Notes: generated from the letters alone by a model not told the origin. Shown: positions 1,103-53,849, counted from the stretch's first letter. The stretch is 64,000 nucleotides of DNA from Bryobacterales bacterium (GCA_965214655.1 OZ243965.1:3876050-3940049), one strand, 5' to 3'. Translations and numbers: made by a program.

Positions 1103-3805
1103 TTGACGCCGCCGGCGTTGCGCCGTCTTGCTATCCGTTATCCGCTATCCGCTATCCACTGGGCGGCGTCAGCCGCGCTTGCCGCGCTGCTCTGCGCTTC
1201 TCCGCTCGGTGCCCAAGGCCAGGAATCGCCGGCCGCGCAATCCGCCAACGGCGACGCGGCCGGCGGCGAATCCGAAGCGGACGCGCCGGCTGCGGTTGCG
1301 GAGGTTTCCGCCGACCGCACCGAGCTCAACCTGCTGGGCGAGGTCGACAGCGAGCGCGGCGAGGGGCGGCGCAACGAAAATCTCGGCCTCACGCTCATCG
1401 ACAACAACGTCCTGCGCGATCTCAACGAGCGGCTGGGAACCACGGCCACGCTCGTGCGTGACTCGAAGATCGAGCAGAGCTACTGGGGAACCGAGCTCGG
1501 CGGCCCCCCGTCGCGCCCGCTGCATCTGCCGCCCGCCCGCGCCGCGGCCGTCCATGGAAACCTGTTTTGGACGCACAACAACAGCGTCTTCAGCGCGCGC
1601 TCGTTCTTTCAGGTCGGCGGGGTTCTGCCGGCGCGGTCGAACGATTACGGCTTCTCGGTCAGCGCGCCGCTCTGGGACGGGGCCGCCTTCACCGTCGACG
1701 GCAGCCAGGGCAAGAATCGCGGTCAGGTCAACGGCAACGTGCTGGTGCCGGCGCTCGACGAACGCACCGCGCTGACCAACGACCCGCGCGTGCGCCCCCT
1801 GGTCGAGCGCATCCTGGCGGCGTTCCCCGCCCAAACGCCCAACCGCACCGATATCAACAAGCGGGCGCTGAATACGAATGCGCCGCAGGATATCAACAAC
1901 AACCGCCTCTCCGGCAAGCTCGATCAAAGCCTCGGCGACAGAGACCGCGTCACCGCCGGCTACAACTTCGTCCGCCAGCGCGTGGACGCCTTTCAGCTTG
2001 TCGGCGGGCAGAACCCGAACACGACGACCCAGAACCACCAGACCCGTCTGACCTGGAACCGCAGTTGGACGCCGGCCACGACGACCGATTTCACCGCCGG
2101 CTTCGACCGCGTAGGCTCGGCGCTGGTTCCCGACGAAACCTCCTTCGGGGCGTGGATCCGCATCGGCGGAGAGCTCACGAGCCTGGGGCCGCCGGGGCGG
2201 TTTCCGGTGGACCGCGCACAGAATCAATTCCGCTACGCCGTCCGCGCCAAGCACGTTCGGGGGAAGCACAATCTGACTTTCGGGTTCGCCCTCAGACGCC
2301 GCCAGGTCAACGGCGCGGAATTTCAAGATCACCGCGGGCTCTTCGTTTTCCGCCGCAACTTCGGCCTGGACGGCGTGACGAGCCTTCGCTACGGAAGGCC
2401 GAGCCGCTATCTCGTCGCCATCGGCAGCATTCATCGCGGCTTTCGCAATTGGCTGACCCAGACGTACGTCGGCGACGACTGGAAAGCGACTCAGAATCTG
2501 ACTCTGAGCGTCGGGCTGCGCTGGGAGCCGGTCACGAGGCCGACCGAGGTGAACGACCTGACCCAAGTCGGTTACAACTCCGATCTCAACAACTTGGCCC
2601 CGCGGTTCGGCCTCGCCTATCGGCTGCCGGGATGGGGAGGCGTCCTGCGCTCGTCCTACGGCGTGCATTACGGCGAGGTTTTCACGGCAACGTACATCCA
2701 GGCTCGCCTGAACCCGCCGCAGAACGTCTCGGTCGATGTCCAGGCGCCGGACTTGGCGGATCCCCTCGGCGGACTGGATGCGAGCGACATCGACCCCAAC
2801 GCCCGTTCCACGCGCTACACGCTCGCCCCCGATCTGGCGACGCCTTACACGCACAACTACAATTTTTCATGGGAATTGGAGCCGGCCCGCGATTGGAAGC
2901 TCGAATTGGGTTACGTCGGCAGCCGCTCGCACAAGCTGCTGGCCATGTGGTATCTCAACCGGGCGCGGCCGGTGGAAGGGACGTCGCAGACGACGCGGAC
3001 GGTGAATCAACGCCGCCCCGACCCCACCGTCTTCGACGTCCGGCACGTGACCAACGGCTCGCGGGGTTACTACGACGCGGCGAAAATCCGGCTGCGCATC
3101 CCCCAATGGGCGGGGTTCGGCATCGAAGCGTCGTACTGGTACAGCAAAGCGATCGATCTCGGCGGGAGCTATCTCAACACCGCGGCGAACGCCAACCGCC
3201 TGCAGACCATGGGCCCGTCCGAGTTTTTGATTCAAGAGGAGTTGCGCGGGCTGAGCAATTTCGATCAGCCGCACGCCATGCTGTGGAACGTCAGCTACCG
3301 CACTCCCGCGTTGGCGGGCCGGGCGCGGCAACTGTTCGGCAACTGGCAGCTCAGCACGGTGCTCCTGGGCAAGTCGGGCACGCCGTTCTCGGTGCTTTCG
3401 GGATCGGACGCGCCGGGTTTCGGCAACGTCGACGGGACGCAGAACGACAATCCGACTCTGCTCGATCCGTCGATTCTGGGCCGCTCGATCGACCATCCGG
3501 ATACGGCGGCCGAGCGGCTGCCCAAGTCGGCGTTCGGCTTCATGCAGCCTACCGAGGCGCGGGGCAACCTGGGACGCAACACGTTCCGCAGGGACGGCAT
3601 CTTCAACATCAACATGGCCCTGTCGAAGCGTTGGACGCTCTCGGGCGATCAGTCGATCCTGTTGCGTGCGGAATCCCTGAACGTCACCAACCACCCCCAG
3701 TTCGCCGAGCCTGGCAACGGCATCGCCTTCGCCAACTTCGCTCAGATCACCAACACGTTGAACGACGGCCGGACGTTCAAGTTCACGCTGCGCTACAGCT
3801 TTTGA
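1103..3805 (+). CDS. TonB-dependent receptor-like outer-membrane beta-barrel protein
   Basis: Long ORF 992..3805. An in-frame TTG at 1103 gives a signal-peptide-like N-terminus (...AALAALLCASPLGAQG). Barrel-like sequence ends ...TFKFTLRYSF with a terminal aromatic residue, as in TBDR/OMPs. The start is uncertain. Confidence 0.7.
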   Translation: MTPPALRRLAIRYPLSAIHWAASAALAALLCASPLGAQGQESPAAQSANGDAAGGESEADAPAAVAEVSADRTELNLLGEVDSERGEGRRNENLGLTLIDNNVLRDLNERLGTTATLVRDSKIEQSYWGTELGGPPSRPLHLPPARAAAVHGNLFWTHNNSVFSARSFFQVGGVLPARSNDYGFSVSAPLWDGAAFTVDGSQGKNRGQVNGNVLVPALDERTALTNDPRVRPLVERILAAFPAQTPNRTDINKRALNTNAPQDINNNRLSGKLDQSLGDRDRVTAGYNFVRQRVDAFQLVGGQNPNTTTQNHQTRLTWNRSWTPATTTDFTAGFDRVGSALVPDETSFGAWIRIGGELTSLGPPGRFPVDRAQNQFRYAVRAKHVRGKHNLTFGFALRRRQVNGAEFQDHRGLFVFRRNFGLDGVTSLRYGRPSRYLVAIGSIHRGFRNWLTQTYVGDDWKATQNLTLSVGLRWEPVTRPTEVNDLTQVGYNSDLNNLAPRFGLAYRLPGWGGVLRSSYGVHYGEVFTATYIQARLNPPQNVSVDVQAPDLADPLGGLDASDIDPNARSTRYTLAPDLATPYTHNYNFSWELEPARDWKLELGYVGSRSHKLLAMWYLNRARPVEGTSQTTRTVNQRRPDPTVFDVRHVTNGSRGYYDAAKIRLRIPQWAGFGIEASYWYSKAIDLGGSYLNTAANANRLQTMGPSEFLIQEELRGLSNFDQPHAMLWNVSYRTPALAGRARQLFGNWQLSTVLLGKSGTPFSVLSGSDAPGFGNVDGTQNDNPTLLDPSILGRSIDHPDTAAERLPKSAFGFMQPTEARGNLGRNTFRRDGIFNINMALSKRWTLSGDQSILLRAESLNVTNHPQFAEPGNGIAFANFAQITNTLNDGRTFKFTLRYSF
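1131..1158 (+). repeat. Four tandem 7-bp units (CTATCCG TTATCCG CTATCCG CTATCCA) inside the predicted signal-peptide region of the receptor gene
   Basis: Read directly from the sequence; it encodes AIRYPLSAIH. Confidence 0.7.
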
Positions 3806-3825
3806 AACGACGGCAGTCCGCGGTT

Positions 3826-3849
3826 CTTGCCGCCCCGCGCAGCGGCAAG
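3826..3849. terminator. Possible bidirectional hairpin between convergent genes (CTTGCCGC-N8-GCGGCAAG)
   Basis: An 8-bp perfect stem lies between the receptor stop (3805) and the ArsC-like stop (3850). There is no clear T-run. Confidence 0.3.
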
Positions 3850-4188
3850 CTAGAGCTCGCCGAGCGCCTCGCTGTCGAATCCCAGCACGATCTTCCGCCC
3901 TGCAACAGCCACCGGCCGCTTGATCAGATTGGGATTTTCGGACATCAGGCGCAGCGCCTCTGCGCGCGGCGGGGGATTTTGTTTCATTCCCATTTCGCGG
4001 TAGAGGGCGTTGCGGGCGTTCAGGAACTGCTTGTAGTCGCGCTCGCCGATCAACGCTTCGAGCGCTGCGACGCTGAGACCCTTGTTGAGATCGATCAACT
4101 CCAGCTCGGCGCCTCGTTCCGCCAGGAAACTCCTGGCCTTGCGGCAACCGGTTCAACCGGGTTTTTGGTAGAAGCGGATTTTGGCCAT
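3850..4188 (-). CDS. ArsC/Spx-family thiol-redox protein with an in-frame UGA (putative selenocysteine) replacing the first Cys of the CxxC motif
   Basis: The minus strand from ATG 4188 reads MAKIRFYQKPG-TGA-TGCRKARSFLAERGAELELIDLNKGLS... and runs in frame into track ORF 3850..4098. The N-terminus aligns by eye with Spx/ArsC YxxPxCxxCRKAxxxL. The C-terminal ...NPNLIKRPV...GF block also fits the family. Confidence 0.65.
4121..4137 (-). promoter_or_regulatory. SECIS-like stem-loop (GCCAGGA-GUU-UCCUGGC), 15 nt downstream of the in-frame UGA at 4153..4155
   Basis: Perfect 7-bp stem with G and U in the apical loop, read directly. Its position is comparable to bacterial SECIS elements. Confidence 0.45.
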
Positions 4189-5967: not shown

Positions 5968-7212
5968 ATGGGAGTCGCTATGCAGCAAGCGGAAGAGTTG
6001 AGTCTCGAACAGATCGAGGCCTTCCTGGGGGGGACGGAGAACGTCGCCTTTCGAGCGGAGGGCCGCAGTGCGCGCTATGAGTTGTTCGCGGCCGTGTTGA
6101 GCCGGCATCACTATGCCCAGTTGGGTCGTAGGCAGAAGGGTCTGCTGCGGCGTTTTCTGCAGAAGTTGAGCGGGCTAAGCCGGGCGCAGACGACGCGGCT
6201 GATCGGGCAGTTTCTGCGCGAGCGCACGGTGCGTCCGACGGTCTACCGCAGGCGGCGTTTCCCCACGTTCTACACGCGGGCGGACATCGTGCTGTTGGCG
6301 CGCGTGGACGAGGCGCACCGGCAGTTATCCGGGCCGGCCACATGCGCCATCCTGCGCCGCGAGCACCAACTCCACGGGCGGAGCGAGTTCCAGCGCTTGG
6401 CGCGGCTCTCGCCGGCGCACCTGTACAACCTGCGCCGCAGCCCAACCTACCGCCGGCAGCGGCGGCCAATAGAGCAGACCCGACCGACACCGATAGCCAT
6501 CGGCGAGCGCCGCCAACCGCAGCCTGAAGGGCGTCCGGGCTATCTGCGCGTGGACACCGTGCATTCCCCCGAACAAGAGGGCGTCAAGGGCGCCTACGCC
6601 CTCAACCTGGTCGACGCAGTCACGCAATGGCAAGTACTTGGCTGCGTCGAGCGGATCAGTGAACAGTACTTGGCGCCGCTGCTCGCAGAGTTGCTGGAAC
6701 AGTTCCCCTTCCCTGTGCGCGGCTTCCATTCCGACAACGGCAGCGAGTTCATCAACCACACCACGGCGCGGCTGCTGGAGAAGCTGCACATCGAGTTCAC
6801 CAAGTCGCGGGCGCGGCGCAGCAACGACAACGCCCTGGTGGAAACCAAGAACGGCGCGGTAGTGCGCAAATGGTTGGGCTACCGTTTCCTGCCTTCGGCG
6901 GCCACAGCCCACATCCATGCCTTCTACCGCGACTGGCTCAACCCCTATCTCAACTTCCACCGACCCTGCGCTTATCCCTCCTGGCAGCCTGATCGTCGCG
7001 GCAAGCTGCGCAAGGTCTACCGCCGCTGGCGCACGCCTTACGAGGCGCTGCTCGCCCTGCCCGCCACGCAGCGCGCCTTACGCCCCTCTCTGCACTGGGA
7101 ACAGTTGCAGGCACAAGCCACGGCGCACTCTGCCACCGCCTTCGCCGAGCAACTCCACAGCCGCCTGCTCGACCTCCAGCGCACCTGCCAAGACCTCGCC
7201 CTACCCTGGTGA
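5968..7212 (+). CDS. DDE transposase with integrase-core (rve) domain
   Basis: 414 aa. The N-terminal HTH-like region is followed by RVDTVH ... GFHSDNGSEF ... SNDNALVETKNG (a D, D, E pattern). It is homologous to ORF 44437..45684. Confidence 0.85.
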   Translation: MGVAMQQAEELSLEQIEAFLGGTENVAFRAEGRSARYELFAAVLSRHHYAQLGRRQKGLLRRFLQKLSGLSRAQTTRLIGQFLRERTVRPTVYRRRRFPTFYTRADIVLLARVDEAHRQLSGPATCAILRREHQLHGRSEFQRLARLSPAHLYNLRRSPTYRRQRRPIEQTRPTPIAIGERRQPQPEGRPGYLRVDTVHSPEQEGVKGAYALNLVDAVTQWQVLGCVERISEQYLAPLLAELLEQFPFPVRGFHSDNGSEFINHTTARLLEKLHIEFTKSRARRSNDNALVETKNGAVVRKWLGYRFLPSAATAHIHAFYRDWLNPYLNFHRPCAYPSWQPDRRGKLRKVYRRWRTPYEALLALPATQRALRPSLHWEQLQAQATAHSATAFAEQLHSRLLDLQRTCQDLALPW

Positions 7213-10079: not shown

Positions 10080-10155
10080 GGGCGCGTAGCTCAATTGGTA
10101 GAGCAAGTGACTCTTAATCACTAGGTTCCGGGTTCGAGTCCCTGCGCGCTCACCA
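10080..10155 (+). tRNA. tRNA-Lys (anticodon CUU), CCA encoded
   Basis: Acceptor stem GGGCGCG/CGCGCUC. Anticodon stem AGTGA/TCACT with loop CT-CTT-AA. T-loop GGTTCGAGTCC. Ends in ACCA. Confidence 0.85.
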
Positions 10156-34437: not shown

Positions 34438-34842
34438 CTATTTCCGCGAGCCAAAGCGTTCGAGAAAGGCTTTCCGCCGCTCCTCGGGCAGGATTTCGTT
34501 GTTGAAAGAGAGCGCGTAGAGCAGGCCCAAAAACAAGCCCAGCGGCCCGATCGCATAGATCAGAACCGCGGTGCCGGGAGGGAACCCCGCGAATGCAACC
34601 AGCGGCCCGTCGGGGGCGTGCAGGGCGTGATTCAAGTAGATCAGCAGACAGAAGACGGCGCCGAAGCAGGCGACGGCGGCGGCGGTCCGCCTGGACGCGC
34701 GCGCTCCGAAGCCCAAGGCCGCCAGCAGCGCGATCAGGATGATCGCGCACCAGCCGAAGAGCAGGCTGCGGCCGGCGAGTCCGGCTGCCAGAGCGGCGGC
34801 CGACAACACGGCGCAAGCGGCCGGAAGTCGATTCCCGCTCAC
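34438..34842 (-). CDS. Hypothetical small membrane protein upstream of the SSS transporter
   Basis: GTG at 34842 overlaps the sulfatase stop (GTGA). Hydrophobic segments run throughout. The start is uncertain. Confidence 0.4.
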   Translation of the reverse strand: MSGNRLPAACAVLSAAALAAGLAGRSLLFGWCAIILIALLAALGFGARASRRTAAAVACFGAVFCLLIYLNHALHAPDGPLVAFAGFPPGTAVLIYAIGPLGLFLGLLYALSFNNEILPEERRKAFLERFGSRK

Positions 34843-36311
34843 CTCCAGGGTTCCTCGCGGTCTTCCAGCAAGGGATAAACGTCCTGGTATGCCTCGATCA
34901 TCCGTTCTTCCCAATACTCCGGGATTGCAGGGTCTTCCGGCTCCGCTCCGCGGTCGCCGGTTTGCTGCATCCACAGATCGAGCACGGACGCCATTTTCGT
35001 CAGCGTCTGCTGATGTTCGGGCGAATCGGCCAGGTTATGCAACTCGTCCGGGTCGGCCTCGGTGTCGTAGAGTTCCTCCGGCGGTCTGGTTTTGGCCAGG
35101 AACGGGTATTGCTCGGCGGAGATTTTGCCGGCTTTTTCCAGACGCTGCATTTGCCGCCAGATCGGATACGAGACTTCCTTGTAGCGGTTGAGCTGCATGT
35201 AAGGCCGCTCGGGATGGAAATTGCGGATGTATTTGAAGCGCTTGCCGCGCACCGCACGGATGCGGTCCACGGTTTCGTCGCAACGGTCCCGGGCGGCGAA
35301 GATGTATTCACGGTCCGGCATTTTGCCGCTGCCCAGGAACACTCTGCCCTGCATGTGCTCGGGAACCGGAATGCCGGCAAGCGCAAGCGATGTCGCCGAG
35401 ATGTCGATCGAGCTGACCAGCTCATCGCGCACGCTGCCGGGCTCGAGGCCGCCGGGCCAACGGATAATCAGCGGGATTTTGATGCCGCCGTCGTAAAGGA
35501 ACTGCTTGTCGCGGGGCATGGGGCGGCCGTGGTCGCCGAAGAAAAACACGATCGTGTTGTCGGTCAGACCGTCTTCGTCGATGCGCTCGAGCGTGTTTCC
35601 GACCTTCTCATCGAGCAGGCGAACCGCGTCGAGATAGCCGGCCTAGTCCTTGCGCGAAATCTCATCGTTCGGGTAATAGTCCGGGGGCGTTACCTTGTCC
35701 GGGTCGGTCTTCGCCGCCAGCCGGTCGGTAAACGCCCAGATGTCGGGCGGCCGTCCCCGGTGCGGCTCGAAGATGTTCACCTGCGCGTAAAACGGCTGCC
35801 CCTGCGCTCTGTCGCGCCAGTCCGTCCCGTCGAACGGTTTTTCGTGGCTGAAGTTGTAGTCGGTCTTGTTGCGCCCGCCGAGTCCGCTTTCGTGATCGTT
35901 GACCGTGTAGTACCCTGCTTCGCGGAAAGAATCGGTGATCATGCCGACGGGGGCGGGCAGGGCGTAGCCGTCCTCGCGGTGGCTGCGGTGGCGATGGGCG
36001 CCGATCGAGGTTTGGTGCATGCCGGTGATCAACGCCGACCGCGAAGGCGAGCACACCGGACAGGTGATGTAGGCGTTCGTAAACCGCGCCCCTTCGCGCG
36101 CCAAGCGGTCGATGTTGGGGGTATCGACTTCGGTCGAGCCGTAGCAACTCAGGTCAGGCGAAAGATCGTCGGCGATGATCCAGACGATATTCCACGGCTG
36201 CGCCTGCCGCCGGCCGGAGGGCTCGCAGGACGCCAGCAGGGCCGCGGCCATACCGCCGCCCAGAAAATCGCGTCGATGCAGGGGAGAGCCCGCAGTTGTT
36301 CTGTCATGCAC
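34839..36311 (-). pseudogene. Cys-type sulfatase interrupted by a single in-frame TAG (35643..35645) at a conserved Trp position
   Basis: Track ORFs 35643..36311 and 34839..35549 are in the same frame. The N-terminal part carries the TAT-like signal and CPVCSPSRSALITG (CxPxR). The junction reads ISRKD-TAG-AGYLDAVRLLDEKVGN...NTIVFFFGDHG, where sulfatases have D-W-A. Confidence 0.75.
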
Positions 36312-50328: not shown

Positions 50329-50788
50329 ACTTCTTCAACCTCTCCGTGTGCCTATGATAGCCGCCCGAAACGGTTTCCCCAGACCGTGAGGCCAGTAACC
50401 CCGCGGCGGCGCGCCAACGCCGGCGGCGCCCTCTTCCGCGCCCTGCGCAACGCCGACGTGGAGGCCGAGTCGGCCTACGCCGCCGTCGAGGAAGTTCGCG
50501 ACATGGCCGGCCACAACGTAGTCGTCGAGATCGGCGCCCGCATCGACCGCGTGGAAACCAGTCTCGGCGCCCGCATCGATACGCCGGCCGCCCGTATCGA
50601 TACGCTCCAGAAGGCGCTCCGGCCGCTTGTCATCGCCGCATCCGTCGCACTGCTCAGCGCGGTCGGCGGCGGCCTGTTCGCGTTGCTCAAGAGTTGACCG
50701 TAGTACGGGTATTTCTCCGGGACAAGACTCCCGCGCTAAACTGGTCGTTCCCCCTTGCTCACTGCCCGGCTTTTTCCCCCTGAAAGAA

Positions 50789-52081
50789 ATGCTTGACCCA
50801 GGCTGGCTGCGCCGCAATTTCGAAGAAGCGAAGCTTCGCCTCAGAGATCGTGTCGATGCGCAAGTCCTGGATGAATTCCTGGATGCCGACAACCGCCGGC
50901 GCGCCGCAGTCACGGAAATCGAGGCGTTGAAGTCGCAGCGCAACCAACTGAGCGCGCAGGTCGCCAAAGCGAGGCGGGCGGGGCAAAGCGCGGACGCCTC
51001 CATGGAGCGGTCGAAGGCTGTAGGCGCCCGAATCAAGCAGCGCGAGGATGCGGTCAAGAGCCTCGATGCGGCGCTGCGCGGCATTCTGAACAACATCCCG
51101 AACGTTCCTCACGAATCGACGCCGCCGGGCAAGGACGAATCCGGCAACGTCGAAGTCGCCCTCTGGGGCGCGCCGCCCGAGTTCGGCTTCGCGCCGAAAC
51201 CCCATTGGGAGCTTGCAGTCGATCTGGGCATCCTCGACTTCGAGCGGGCCGCCAAGATCACCGGCGCGCGGTTTGCCGTGTACCGCGGCGCCGGCGCAAA
51301 ACTCGAGCGCGCGTTGATCAATTTCATGCTCGACGTGCACACGCGGGAACACGGCTATGAAGAAGTCCTGCCGCCGTTCCTGGTGAACTCGAGCAGCCTT
51401 TACGGCGCCGGGCAGCTTCCGAAATTTTCCGATGACCTGTTCAAGCTCGAAGGCACGGGCTATTGGCTGGCGCCCACCGCCGAGGTACCGCTGACCAACC
51501 TGTTCGCCGGAGAAACCCTGAGCGCCGCCGAGCTTCCGCTCAAGCTGACGGCGTTCACTCCGTGTTTCCGCAGCGAGGCCGGCTCCTACGGCCGCGATGT
51601 CCGCGGCATCATTCGCCAGCACCAATTCCAGAAGGTCGAGCTGGTCAAGTTCGCCTTGCCGGAACAAAGCTACGACGAGTTGGAAAGCCTGACCGCCGAC
51701 GCCGAGGACATCTTGCGCCGCCTGCAGCTTCCTTACCGCAAGGTCGTGCTGTCGGCCGGCGATACTTCGTTCAGCTCCGCCAAGACTTACGATCTCGAGG
51801 TCTGGCTGCCCGGACTCGGGCAGTACAAGGAAATCTCGTCGTGCAGCAATTTCGAGGCGTTCCAAGCCCGCCGCGCCGGGATTCGCTTCCGCGACCGGAG
51901 CGTCAAGAAAGGCAAAGCGCAACTGGCGCACACTTTGAACGGCAGCGGTCTCGCCGTGGGGCGCACCTGGCTGGCGATCGTCGAGAACCGCCAGCAGGCC
52001 GACGGTTCCGTGAAGCTGCCCGAGGCGTTGCAGCCGTACCTCGACGCCGAGCGCATCGCCCCGGACGGACGGCTGGTTTAG
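50789..52081 (+). CDS. serS: Seryl-tRNA synthetase
   Basis: [13 protein letters not shown]... N-terminal coiled coil. Class II motifs include [14 protein letters not shown] and FRSEAGS. The stop TAG is at 52079..52081. Confidence 0.95.
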
Positions 52082-53849
52082 CCCGGATTTCTCACCAGGC
52101 ATGGCTGGGCGGGCAGGAAGCGGTTTACGGAACGAATTTGAGGGGCAGTTGATGCGGGTCGCCCAGTACAGTGGCCGTTGCGCACGCTGGGTGTAGCGTC
52201 CGGCGCTACACGCGGGGGCGTCAGGAGGGTTTGGGGCCGAATTTGCGCACACTCCGGCCAAGCCCCCGCCGGGGCTGCTGCGCTTGCTGTGACCTTCGAA
52301 CCCGCAGGCGCCAGGCGCCCCTTCAGCAGCCCTGCGGCGGCGGCCTTCCCAGATTGGCGTAAACCGCAGCAAACAGCGCCTGCGCCGGATGGCCCGTAGC
52401 CATCAAGACTCACACCTTGCGCGCCGTCACCCGCACCCGCGCCCCGATCTTGAGCAGCCGTACGCGGATCGTCGCGCATTGCGCCCGCGCCATCTGCGTG
52501 CCCGCCAAGCCCAACTCGCGCAACGCTTGCAACAGACAGTAGGCGATCGCAGAAAAATACAAACGAATCTGGTTCGAGCGCAGCAGCGCCGTCGAGGTGC
52601 GGTCGGCGAACAAAGCCAACTGTTGCTCTTTGATGCGCTTCTCCATCTCGCCCCGCGCGCAGTAGAGATCCTCGTACAAGCTCTGCGCGGCGTACTGTGC
52701 GGTGCTGAGCGAGGTCACCACGAAGCGTAGATTGGGAAGCGCGGATTGGCGCCCTTGGCCAGCCGCTCGGCCTTGCCCACCACACGCCGTTTGCGCCGCC
52801 AACTGTGGCGCGTGCGATAACGGAACTCGGCGAACGCCCGCGCCGGCTTGCCGCTGGCAGCGTAGCGCCGCTGCGCCTTCTGCAACGGCTTGTGCAGGCG
52901 GCGCAACAAACGCTGGTTCTTGGCCAGTCCGAACACGTAGTCCACCCCCTGTTGCTCACACCAACTCATCAACTCCTCGCGGCAAAAGCCTGCATCGGCG
53001 CGCAGCAGAATCTCCACCCCGGGCCATCTCCGGCGCAACTGCCCCACGATCCGCACGACCTCTTCCAGCGCCCCCGCCGCAGCGTCTCGGTTCGCTGTCC
53101 GCAACCGCGCGCAGACCAACTGCTCGTCAATGAAGATGTACAACGGCAAGTAGCAGTAGGCGCCGTAGTAGCCGTGAAAAAAACGCCCTTCCTGCTGCCC
53201 GTGCAGACGGTCGTCGGTGGCGTCGAGATCCAGCACGATGCGCTGCGGGCGGCAACTCTGCCGCTGGATGTAGAGTTCAACCAACAGCGCATCGACCGCT
53301 GCGCTGTCCAGGGCGATCTTCTTGTAGCGCGCGCTCGCTTCGACCTGCGCAGGGGTCAACTCCAGCCGGTTCAGCGTGCTCTTGCCCGCCCCGGCCCGGC
53401 CCCGATCCCGCCGCCGCCGACGCTTGCCGCCCGCCACATCGGCCTTGCCCGACAACAACGCCAGCAGCGGGTCGCTGCGCAGTCGATCGTGATCGTTGAG
53501 GTCTTCGTAACCCAAGGCCAGCCCATAGACCCGTTGGCTCACCAACTCCGCCACGCTGTGCTCGATCCGCTCCGCTTGGCGGGAGTCGCGAAAGCAGCCC
53601 GCGAACTGGCGCAGAATGCCGGTCTGCCGCTCGGTGCGCTGCAACAGCAGGGCCCCGGCCTCGCTGGTGATCGTCCCGCCATCGAAACGGGCTACCGCCT
53701 CCCGGCGGAATCCAGTAGCAAAATGAAAACTCGTTTGGTTACACTGTGTCCTAGCGAAAAGTCGTTCGTTGCTGGCTGCAACATATTCATCTACATACGT
53801 TTATGCCACAATCAGCGGCTTTTCGCTACCCCCTGGTGAGAAATCCGGG
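52082..53849 (-). mobile_element. IS1380-family insertion sequence with 18-bp perfect terminal inverted repeats and a 4-bp TTAG target duplication
   Basis: CCCGGATTTCTCACCAGG at 52082..52099 and its reverse complement at 53832..53849. TTAG lies at 52078..52081 and at 53850..53853. Confidence 0.85.
52410..53800 (-). pseudogene. IS1380-type DDE transposase, frameshifted, with no canonical start codon
   Basis: The N-terminal part (...RFDGGTITSEAGALLLQRTERQTGIL...) and the C-terminal part (...RFVVTSLST...LLKIGARVRVTARKV) are in different frames. They join at a 14-bp tandem near-duplication (52722..52749). Confidence 0.8.

Follow-up and report, generated by a model that had tools for sequence, protein, structure and literature searches.

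Selenoproteins of the arsenate reductase (ArsC) superfamily have been described before. The 'ArsC-like' selenoproteins of Desulfuromonas acetoxidans and Desulfotalea psychrophila were reported by Zhang et al. 2006, the Global Ocean Sampling (GOS) survey lists 'Arsenate reductase 1 (UxxS)' and 'Arsenate reductase 2 (UxxC)', where U is selenocysteine (Sec), and the 2022 and 2026 reviews carry an 'Arsenate reductase-like protein'; the 2026 review gives TIGR00014 (UxxS) and NF041106 (UxxC). The locus analysed here lies in 64,000 nucleotides of DNA from a Bryobacterales bacterium (GCA_965214655.1 OZ243965.1:3876050-3940049); this whole stretch is referred to as the window. An earlier reading of the window, made by a model from the sequence alone (the sequence-only reading), proposed that an ArsC/Spx-family gene near one end is a selenoprotein gene split at an in-frame UGA, and pointed to earlier predictions of ArsC-like selenoproteins, which are indeed catalogued in Zhang et al. 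2006, the GOS survey and the 2026 review. The comparative sequence data presented below make it very likely that this is a genuine selenoprotein gene, with Sec recoding at UGA 4155..4153.

The minus-strand frame at window positions 3850..4188 runs from an ATG start to a TAG stop and is interrupted solely by one UGA (Table 1). Between the in-frame TAA 4200..4198, four codons 5' of ATG 4188..4186, and this ATG there are no alternative starts. Every coordinate of the upstream extension described in the sequence-only reading, from ATG 4188 with UGA 4153..4155 as the only interruption, was reproduced, and its claim that the open reading frame (ORF) caller had split the gene was correct: the caller reports only 3850..4098, while the full frame reaches 4188. 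The short ORF is, start residue aside, the public protein P0002 (82 amino acids, aa). The program translation of the complete frame begins MAKIRFYQKPG-U-TGCRKARSFL... and continues past Sec as MAKIRFYQKPG-U-TGCRKARSFLAERG...; the predicted protein is basic (isoelectric point about 9.6), and its reconstructed length of 112 aa, as first proposed, compares with 110-114 aa in Cys homologues.

With Cys substituted at the UGA, the window protein matches Pfam ArsC (PF03960) over residues 7-110 with 60.7 bits (cutoff 24, E=1.8e-16). This match and the alignment of Cys homologues bear out the placement of the UGA at the first Cys of the ArsC/Spx CxxC motif. The fold was read from the AlphaFold model of P0001, a Cys homologue 70% identical to the window protein. 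This model (predicted local distance difference test score 95.3; E3-7, H12-23, E28-32, helices, E92-95, E98-101, H105-113) has an ArsC/Spx thioredoxin-like fold with the first motif Cys directly before helix alpha-1 (residues 12-23). Foldseek comparisons of the model gave template modelling (TM) scores of 0.76-0.85 to Spx, ArsC-related, YffB and ArsC structures, and the solved structures nearest in sequence are those of a putative S. aureus ArsC-related protein (2m46, E=6e-14), of Spx (E about 2e-10) and of YffB (E=2e-6). The predicted product is shown by homology and modelling to be a 112-aa thioredoxin-fold protein of the ArsC/Spx superfamily.

The window protein shares with NF041106, the ArsC family (seleno)protein that corresponds to 'ArsC-like' of Zhang et al. 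2006, to 'Arsenate reductase 2 (UxxC)' of the GOS survey and to the 'Arsenate reductase-like protein' of the two reviews, membership of the Pfam ArsC superfamily, a length of about 110 aa, a U-T-S/T-C motif at the same N-terminal position, the occurrence of Sec/Cys pairs and an in-frame selenocysteine insertion sequence (SECIS). However, it scores 28.1 bits against this model (cutoff 85), compared with 132.2 for the D. acetoxidans positive control, and a distant Sec-type relative scores 27.3 against the same cutoff. The stretch alignable with the D. acetoxidans ArsC-like protein covers 23 residues around the motif, the C-terminal signature of NF041106 is GNLRAPT versus NPNLIKRP in the window family, and its hosts are deltaproteobacteria and marine metagenomes versus soil Bryobacterales. 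The window protein has 27% identity to a single atypical UxxC read from the GOS survey. Glutaredoxin-coupled ArsC (TIGR00014, E. coli R773), whose Sec form is 'Arsenate reductase 1 (UxxS)' of the GOS survey, resembles the family in fold (TM about 0.78 to 1i9d/1jzw) and in the position of the nucleophile, but the window protein scores 42 bits against TIGR00014 (cutoff 106), its motif is UxxC and not UxxS or a single Cys, and the C-terminal 'GRP' arginine of ArsC is, on a reading of the alignment only, apparently replaced by LGFD. The best-scoring NCBIfam model is TIGR01617, Spx/MgsR 'arsC_related' (PDB 1z3e, 6gho, 2m46, 3gkx), although at 65.3 bits for the window protein and 63.7 for the distant relative the family lies under its cutoff of 75.05. 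Spx also provides the best fold matches (6gho and 1z3e, TM 0.83-0.84), and U12-T-G-C15 of the window protein aligns with the C10-T-S-C13 redox switch of Spx; however, Spx is a Firmicutes protein of about 131 aa, whereas the acidobacterial window protein has 112 aa, lacks the C-terminal tail and is 21% identical to it. Scores below the curated cutoffs of both NF041106 and TIGR00014 suggest that the family is a third Sec-using clade of the ArsC superfamily.

A homologue scan with one genome per species yielded 330 relatives, of which the best 80 were examined; together with the window they form a set of 81 orthologues. Nearly all of the 80 are metagenome-assembled genomes of Bryobacterales, Bryobacteraceae or Solibacteraceae (Acidobacteriota). 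The codon aligned with the UGA is TGA in 60 of the 81, TGC in 12 and TGT in 9, and with the window set aside the UGA form is present at 59 of the 80 species-representative loci, reaching down to 62% protein identity. Sequence on either side of this codon is conserved across the Cys and UGA forms. All full-length database homologues (110-114 aa, 60-70% identical over 97-98% of the length) read C-[TS]-[ST]-C-R-K-A at this position. The column thus holds either TGA (60) or a Cys codon (21 TGC/TGT), as the sequence-only reading had anticipated, and at least seven Sec/Cys switches can be counted on a neighbour-joining tree of the orthologues.

The sequence upstream of the UGA is conserved as protein. 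A start codon is located 8-12 codons before the UGA in 59 of the 60 UGA forms, and the intervening peptide, with P at -2 (60/60), K at -3 (58/60) and Y at -5 (57/60), aligns with the N-terminus of Cys-form homologues. The truncated database homologues (82-97 aa, 72-99% identical) have in the surrounding DNA the same in-frame TGA and the same N-terminal peptide before it. Degradation of the gene in relatives, which the sequence-only reading had named as evidence that would count against a selenoprotein, was not observed: start and peptide are kept in 59 of 60, and no further lesion was found in any of the 60 UGA forms examined. The maintenance of the UGA together with a start codon, a conserved peptide and an otherwise undamaged frame rules out a pseudogene, a sequencing error and a downstream-start product as explanations. 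L057 (3010-3063) is the one UGA-type locus in which no start codon could be recognised 5-16 codons before the UGA; it has a divergent peptide ahead of the UGA and a loop with AAU in place of AGU, and may be a decaying copy.

A hairpin follows the UGA in all 60 UGA forms, with its 5' arm in the same alignment columns and its loop beginning 21 or 22 nt after the UGA. Loops in these orthologues are 3-6 nt and stems 4-8 bp long; 59 of 60 have a G among the first two loop nucleotides, and GUU occurs in nearly all loops. The local minimum free energy (MFE), calculated over 32 nt, is -8.1 kcal/mol or lower in 60/60, and 40 of the 60 lie between -1.4 and -7.4 kcal/mol when the perfect helix only is considered. 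The 3' arm takes one of three registers (i+j = 59, 60 or 61), distributed in three sub-clades, with loops of 3, 4 or 6 nt (Table 1). Across alignment columns 21-39 (window 4138..4120) the 5' arm and loop GUU are fixed irrespective of the 3' arm register, and the peptide encoded by the hairpin varies (A-R-S-F-L-A, A-R-S-F-L-L or A-K-S-[LW]-L-R).

Three stem positions covary, with 0-1 mismatches each. Among 59 distinct sequences, each read in its own register, the pair at column 24 is C-G in 19, U-G in 5, A-U in 12, U-A in 1 and G-C in 21, with one mismatch; column 26 is G-C in 37 and A-U in 22, and column 27 is G-C in 47 and A-U in 12. For the clade that includes the window, the alignment without register fitting has 89.4% of cells paired, and sliding the 3' partner lowers this to 60% or less; both sides have changed in three pairs, and the covariation score was matched by 1 of 500 shuffles. 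Conservation of the hairpin among UGA-containing homologues, on which the sequence-only reading had made its proposal depend, is therefore evident: it is found in 60/60 with compensatory substitutions, and the Cys forms lack it.

Two controls, one based on recoding and the other on folding energy, indicate that the hairpin is not forced by the encoded peptide. In recodings that preserve the peptides and follow the codon usage of these genes, the position-specific stem of the Sec forms drops from 6.5 bp to 3.0 bp (p<=0.05 for 88% of sequences), whereas the Cys forms show 3.2 bp both as observed and as recoded. The local folding energy is -10.7 kcal/mol for Sec forms versus -6.9 kcal/mol for Cys forms (p=4e-6). 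Moreover, 57 of 60 Sec forms use AGU for the Ser in the loop, a codon that makes up 12 of the 244 Ser codons (5%) in the rest of these genes. The generic MFE gave a weak signal against synonymous recoding (mean z -0.85), since any GC-rich 33-mer folds somewhat, and the position-specific stem statistic was used instead.

The published criteria for bacterial SECIS (bSECIS) elements (PMC13188914) comprise 3-9 nt for the apical loop, 4-16 bp for the upper stem, a G among the first two loop nucleotides with G or U usually next to it, a UGA-to-loop distance of 16-37 nt and an MFE of -7.5 kcal/mol or lower. The perfect 7-bp hairpin GCCAGGA-GUU-UCCUGGC, which is present in the window exactly where it had been described (4121..4137, 15 nt past the UGA), falls within all of these limits, with a 3-nt loop, a 7-bp stem, G-U in the loop, 22 nt from UGA to apical loop and -10.7 kcal/mol when folded alone; the SECIS-compatible placement claimed for it thus agrees with the published model. 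It is also part of the MFE fold of the region. Like the bSECISearch consensus (E. coli fdhF type), it is a coding-region stem-loop just past the UGA, but the stem sequence is specific to the window family and the 3' arm occurs in three registers. The Rfam search of the window matched no RNA family to the hairpin and reported only a tRNA. The UGA itself is also enclosed by a short hairpin of 5 bp, CCGGU-UGA-ACCGG, which is terminator-like on the plus strand; as a candidate element it is confined to the window and its closest relatives and, not being conserved family-wide, was dismissed as probable chance.

UGA is the commonest stop in the window, where it ends 23 of the 47 called genes, and it is also the terminal stop of 9 of the 60 Sec-type genes. 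Since UGA is an ordinary stop here, its decoding at codon 12 depends on context. Regarding the decoding machinery, SelA and SelB are recorded for Solibacter usitatus, along with two FdhA proteins that contain Sec (Zhang et al. 2006 supplements). A query with Solibacter SelA returned at least 8000 matches, all with E<=1e-30; the best 120 of these are 72-90% identical to the query and several are named Bryobacteraceae, so that, judged from sequence similarity, SelA is widespread in this family. The selA gene of Bryobacteraceae adjoins a convergent efp, with tRNA-Pro(CGG) just upstream on the opposite strand; this tRNA was considered as a candidate tRNA-Sec and rejected once it turned out to be tRNA-Pro(CGG). 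In the Solibacter 'SelA' sequence given by Zhang et al. 2006, the N-terminal ~45 residues (...GEWIRTTGLLVPNQALYQAEPRPE...) resemble a translation of this tRNA gene; the N-terminus apparently spans it, and the start would therefore have been placed too far upstream.

Several observations weigh against Sec recoding. The window hairpin taken alone is not striking (z=-1.79 versus shuffles; p=0.15 for generic MFE versus synonymous recodings), and its 3-nt loop is the shortest that the bSECIS model allows; its significance rests on the comparative data. Among the orthologues, the uninterrupted stem is just 4-5 bp in 7 of 60, and the register assignment of each sequence was partly fitted to structure. 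RNAalifold found no consensus hairpin in the ungapped 60-sequence alignment, a null result explained by the shifts in register of the 3' arm and not by absence of structure. The window contains no selA, selB, selD or tRNA-Sec detectable by Rfam, ARAGORN, Pfam (on 40 of the 47 called genes) or tblastn with E. coli SelA/SelB/SelD, and none of the three SelA loci examined belongs to an assembly of the ArsC-like set. The flanks of the homologue loci likewise gave no SelA/SelB/SelD by tblastn and, on 60 loci, no tRNA-Sec by ARAGORN.

The absence of machinery genes from the window is also compatible with decoding of the UGA by a suppressor tRNA (an allo-tRNA or a tRNA-Sec-like tRNA-Cys, as described in Acidobacteria and deltaproteobacteria), which would insert Cys, Trp or another residue, with the hairpin only slowing the ribosome; tRNA-Sec and SelB were not among the finds for the source genome, of which the 64-kb window was searched. 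Allo-tRNAs that are possible nonsense suppressors have been reported in Acidobacteria by Mukai et al. (PMC5389517), and Trp takes the place of Sec in a JGI protein, P0072 (137 aa; ...KPTWTTCRNA...), which probably reflects the use of a different genetic code table by the source pipeline when translating TGA. However, a general opal suppressor would read through the 23 UGA stops of the window and the nine Sec-type gene ends mentioned above, and the context-dependence of decoding at codon 12 counts against it. In its spacing, its loop size and the G-U of its loop, the hairpin matches SelB-dependent bacterial SECIS elements, the site is the catalytic Cys position, a classic site of Sec/Cys exchange, and SelA occurs widely in Bryobacteraceae, with SelB also present in Solibacter. 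Suppression is thus considered very unlikely.

Even less credence can be given to termination at the UGA, with a downstream ORF as the product (82 aa from TTG 4098, or longer) and an 11-codon leader or non-coding sequence upstream. This is how the public protein records of UGA forms among the matches present the gene (P0002, P0013, P0027, P0070 and others, 82-97 aa), but such a product would lack strand beta-1 and the entire redox motif, the annotated lengths vary among relatives (82, 84, 91, 93, 97 aa) with starts at non-homologous positions, and the peptide before the UGA is conserved as protein and aligns with Cys-form N-termini. A pseudogene or a sequencing or assembly error, in which a Cys codon TGC or TGT was mutated or misread as TGA, requires the change of a single base, and the window does contain at least one gene that looks frameshifted (the sulfatase at 34839-36311). 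Nevertheless, this explanation is effectively refuted by the presence of the TGA in 60 independent genomes down to 62% identity without any other lesion, by its recurrence on seven contigs that were assembled separately from a single metagenome sample, and by a co-conserved hairpin specific to the TGA forms.

In the preferred reading, that of a selenoprotein gene, translation would begin at AUG 4188 and the SECIS hairpin 4137..4121 would recruit SelB with Sec-tRNA(Sec) at UGA 4155..4153, its GUU loop lying 22 nt downstream, so that Sec would be inserted in place of termination. Judging from CxxC proteins that share this fold, the N-terminal end of helix alpha-1 would carry Sec12, one turn from Cys15; Sec12 would make the nucleophilic attack, Cys15 would be the resolving residue, and the protein would most likely alternate between a selenol/thiol form and a selenenylsulfide joining U12 and C15. 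The Spx, YffB and ArsC folds match about equally well, and the fold therefore leaves the function undecided. Nor is there an operon from which function could be deduced, since the gene neighbourhood is not conserved (any one neighbour is common to at most 16 of the 80 loci). The same analogies suggest that the protein is most likely a small cytoplasmic oxidoreductase or redox sensor. A more specific and unlikely proposal is that the family is the acidobacterial counterpart of Spx/MgsR, an RNA-polymerase-binding redox regulator with a U12/C15 selenenylsulfide switch. The best family model (Spx/MgsR), the best fold matches (Spx, among them 1z3e, in which Spx is in complex with the RNA polymerase alpha C-terminal domain) and the lack of a conserved operon are in its favour, whereas the score below the family cutoff, the lack of the Spx C-terminal tail and the ~21% identity to Spx argue against it. 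If true, this would be the first selenocysteine-containing transcription regulator.

Table 1. Features of the predicted selenoprotein gene, its hairpin registers and other loci (window coordinates unless a locus is named)
Feature	Position	Strand	Description
Complete predicted selenoprotein coding sequence (CDS)	3850..4188	-	112 aa + TAG; ArsC/Spx-family thioredoxin-fold protein; U12-x-x-C15 redox motif
Start codon ATG	4186..4188	-	nearest in-frame upstream stop TAA 4198..4200
In-frame UGA (codon 12, TGA)	4153..4155	-	occupies first (nucleophilic) Cys of CxxC; predicted to be read as selenocysteine
Cys15 codon TGC	4144..4146	-	presumed resolving Cys of UxxC; invariant across aligned homologues
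Putative SECIS hairpin GCCAGGA-GUU-UCCUGGC	4121..4137	-	7-bp stem; within CDS, codons 18-23 (A-R-S-F-L-A)
Putative SECIS apical loop GUU	4128..4130	-	3 nt
Stop TAG	3850..3852	-	closes 112-aa frame
Truncated ORF from gene callers	3850..4098	-	82 aa, TTG start; probable annotation artefact of the UGA
Hairpin register 1			5' arm GGCCAGGA / 3' arm UCCUGGCC; loop GUU; 27 sequences, window among them
Hairpin register 2			5' arm AGCAAGA / 3' arm UCUUGCU; loop AGUU; 13 sequences
Hairpin register 3			5' arm GCGAAG / 3' arm CUUCGC; loop AGUU[UG]G; 20 sequences
Small hairpin CCGGU-UGA-ACCGG	4148-4160		5 bp, UGA in loop
tRNA-cluster loci L018, L023, L025, L032, L034, L037, L042, L043, L063, L066	about 3345-3998		Thr(GGT)-Gly(TCC)-Thr(TGT)
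selA-efp locus L091	7868-9961
selA-efp locus L092	7868-10106
selA-efp locus L093	5918-7934
rve-type integrase	5968-7212	+	about 1.8 kb from the selenoprotein gene
tRNA-Lys(CTT)	10080-10155	+
Sulfatase half	34839-35549	-	C-terminal part
Sulfatase half	35643-36311	-	N-terminal part
Seryl-tRNA synthetase	50627-52081	+	housekeeping serS
DDE transposase	52715-53644	-

In the window, the gene is preceded by a DAO-type FAD oxidoreductase gene on the same strand and faces a convergent outer-membrane beta-barrel gene. Ten UGA-type loci of one sub-clade have a convergent tRNA cluster a few tens of nt past the gene (about 100 nt in L043), with Gln(CTG) added in seven of the ten; the window does not have this Thr-Gly-Thr context. 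Two mobile-element genes, encoding an rve-type integrase and a DDE transposase, are also present in the window, and a tRNA-Lys(CTT) gene is the sole RNA gene found there by Rfam and ARAGORN. The two sulfatase halves (Pfam Sulfatase, SGSH_C) are in different frames 94 nt apart; the explanation is a frameshift in a pseudogene or a mistake in the assembly. The seryl-tRNA synthetase gene of the window is a housekeeping serS and provides no evidence for a Sec trait; seryl-tRNA synthetase also charges tRNA-Sec with serine. No other TGA-split ORF in the window has a redox motif or is otherwise convincing.

At present the UGA-form entries among the protein matches are 82-97-aa fragments without the active site, and no curated NCBIfam model captures this family; a Sec-aware model would mend annotation in many genomes of Bryobacterales, which is mainly a soil order. 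The family would represent a third clade of the ArsC superfamily that uses selenocysteine, in a superfamily already known for selenoproteins with the same motif and logic, and existing knowledge of Sec decoding is left unchanged. With 60 Sec forms, 21 Cys forms and at least seven switches between them, it offers a natural data set on the evolution of coding-region SECIS elements, in which one hairpin persists in three pairing registers despite changes in the peptide that it encodes. It would also imply that Sec use in these bacteria goes beyond formate dehydrogenase.

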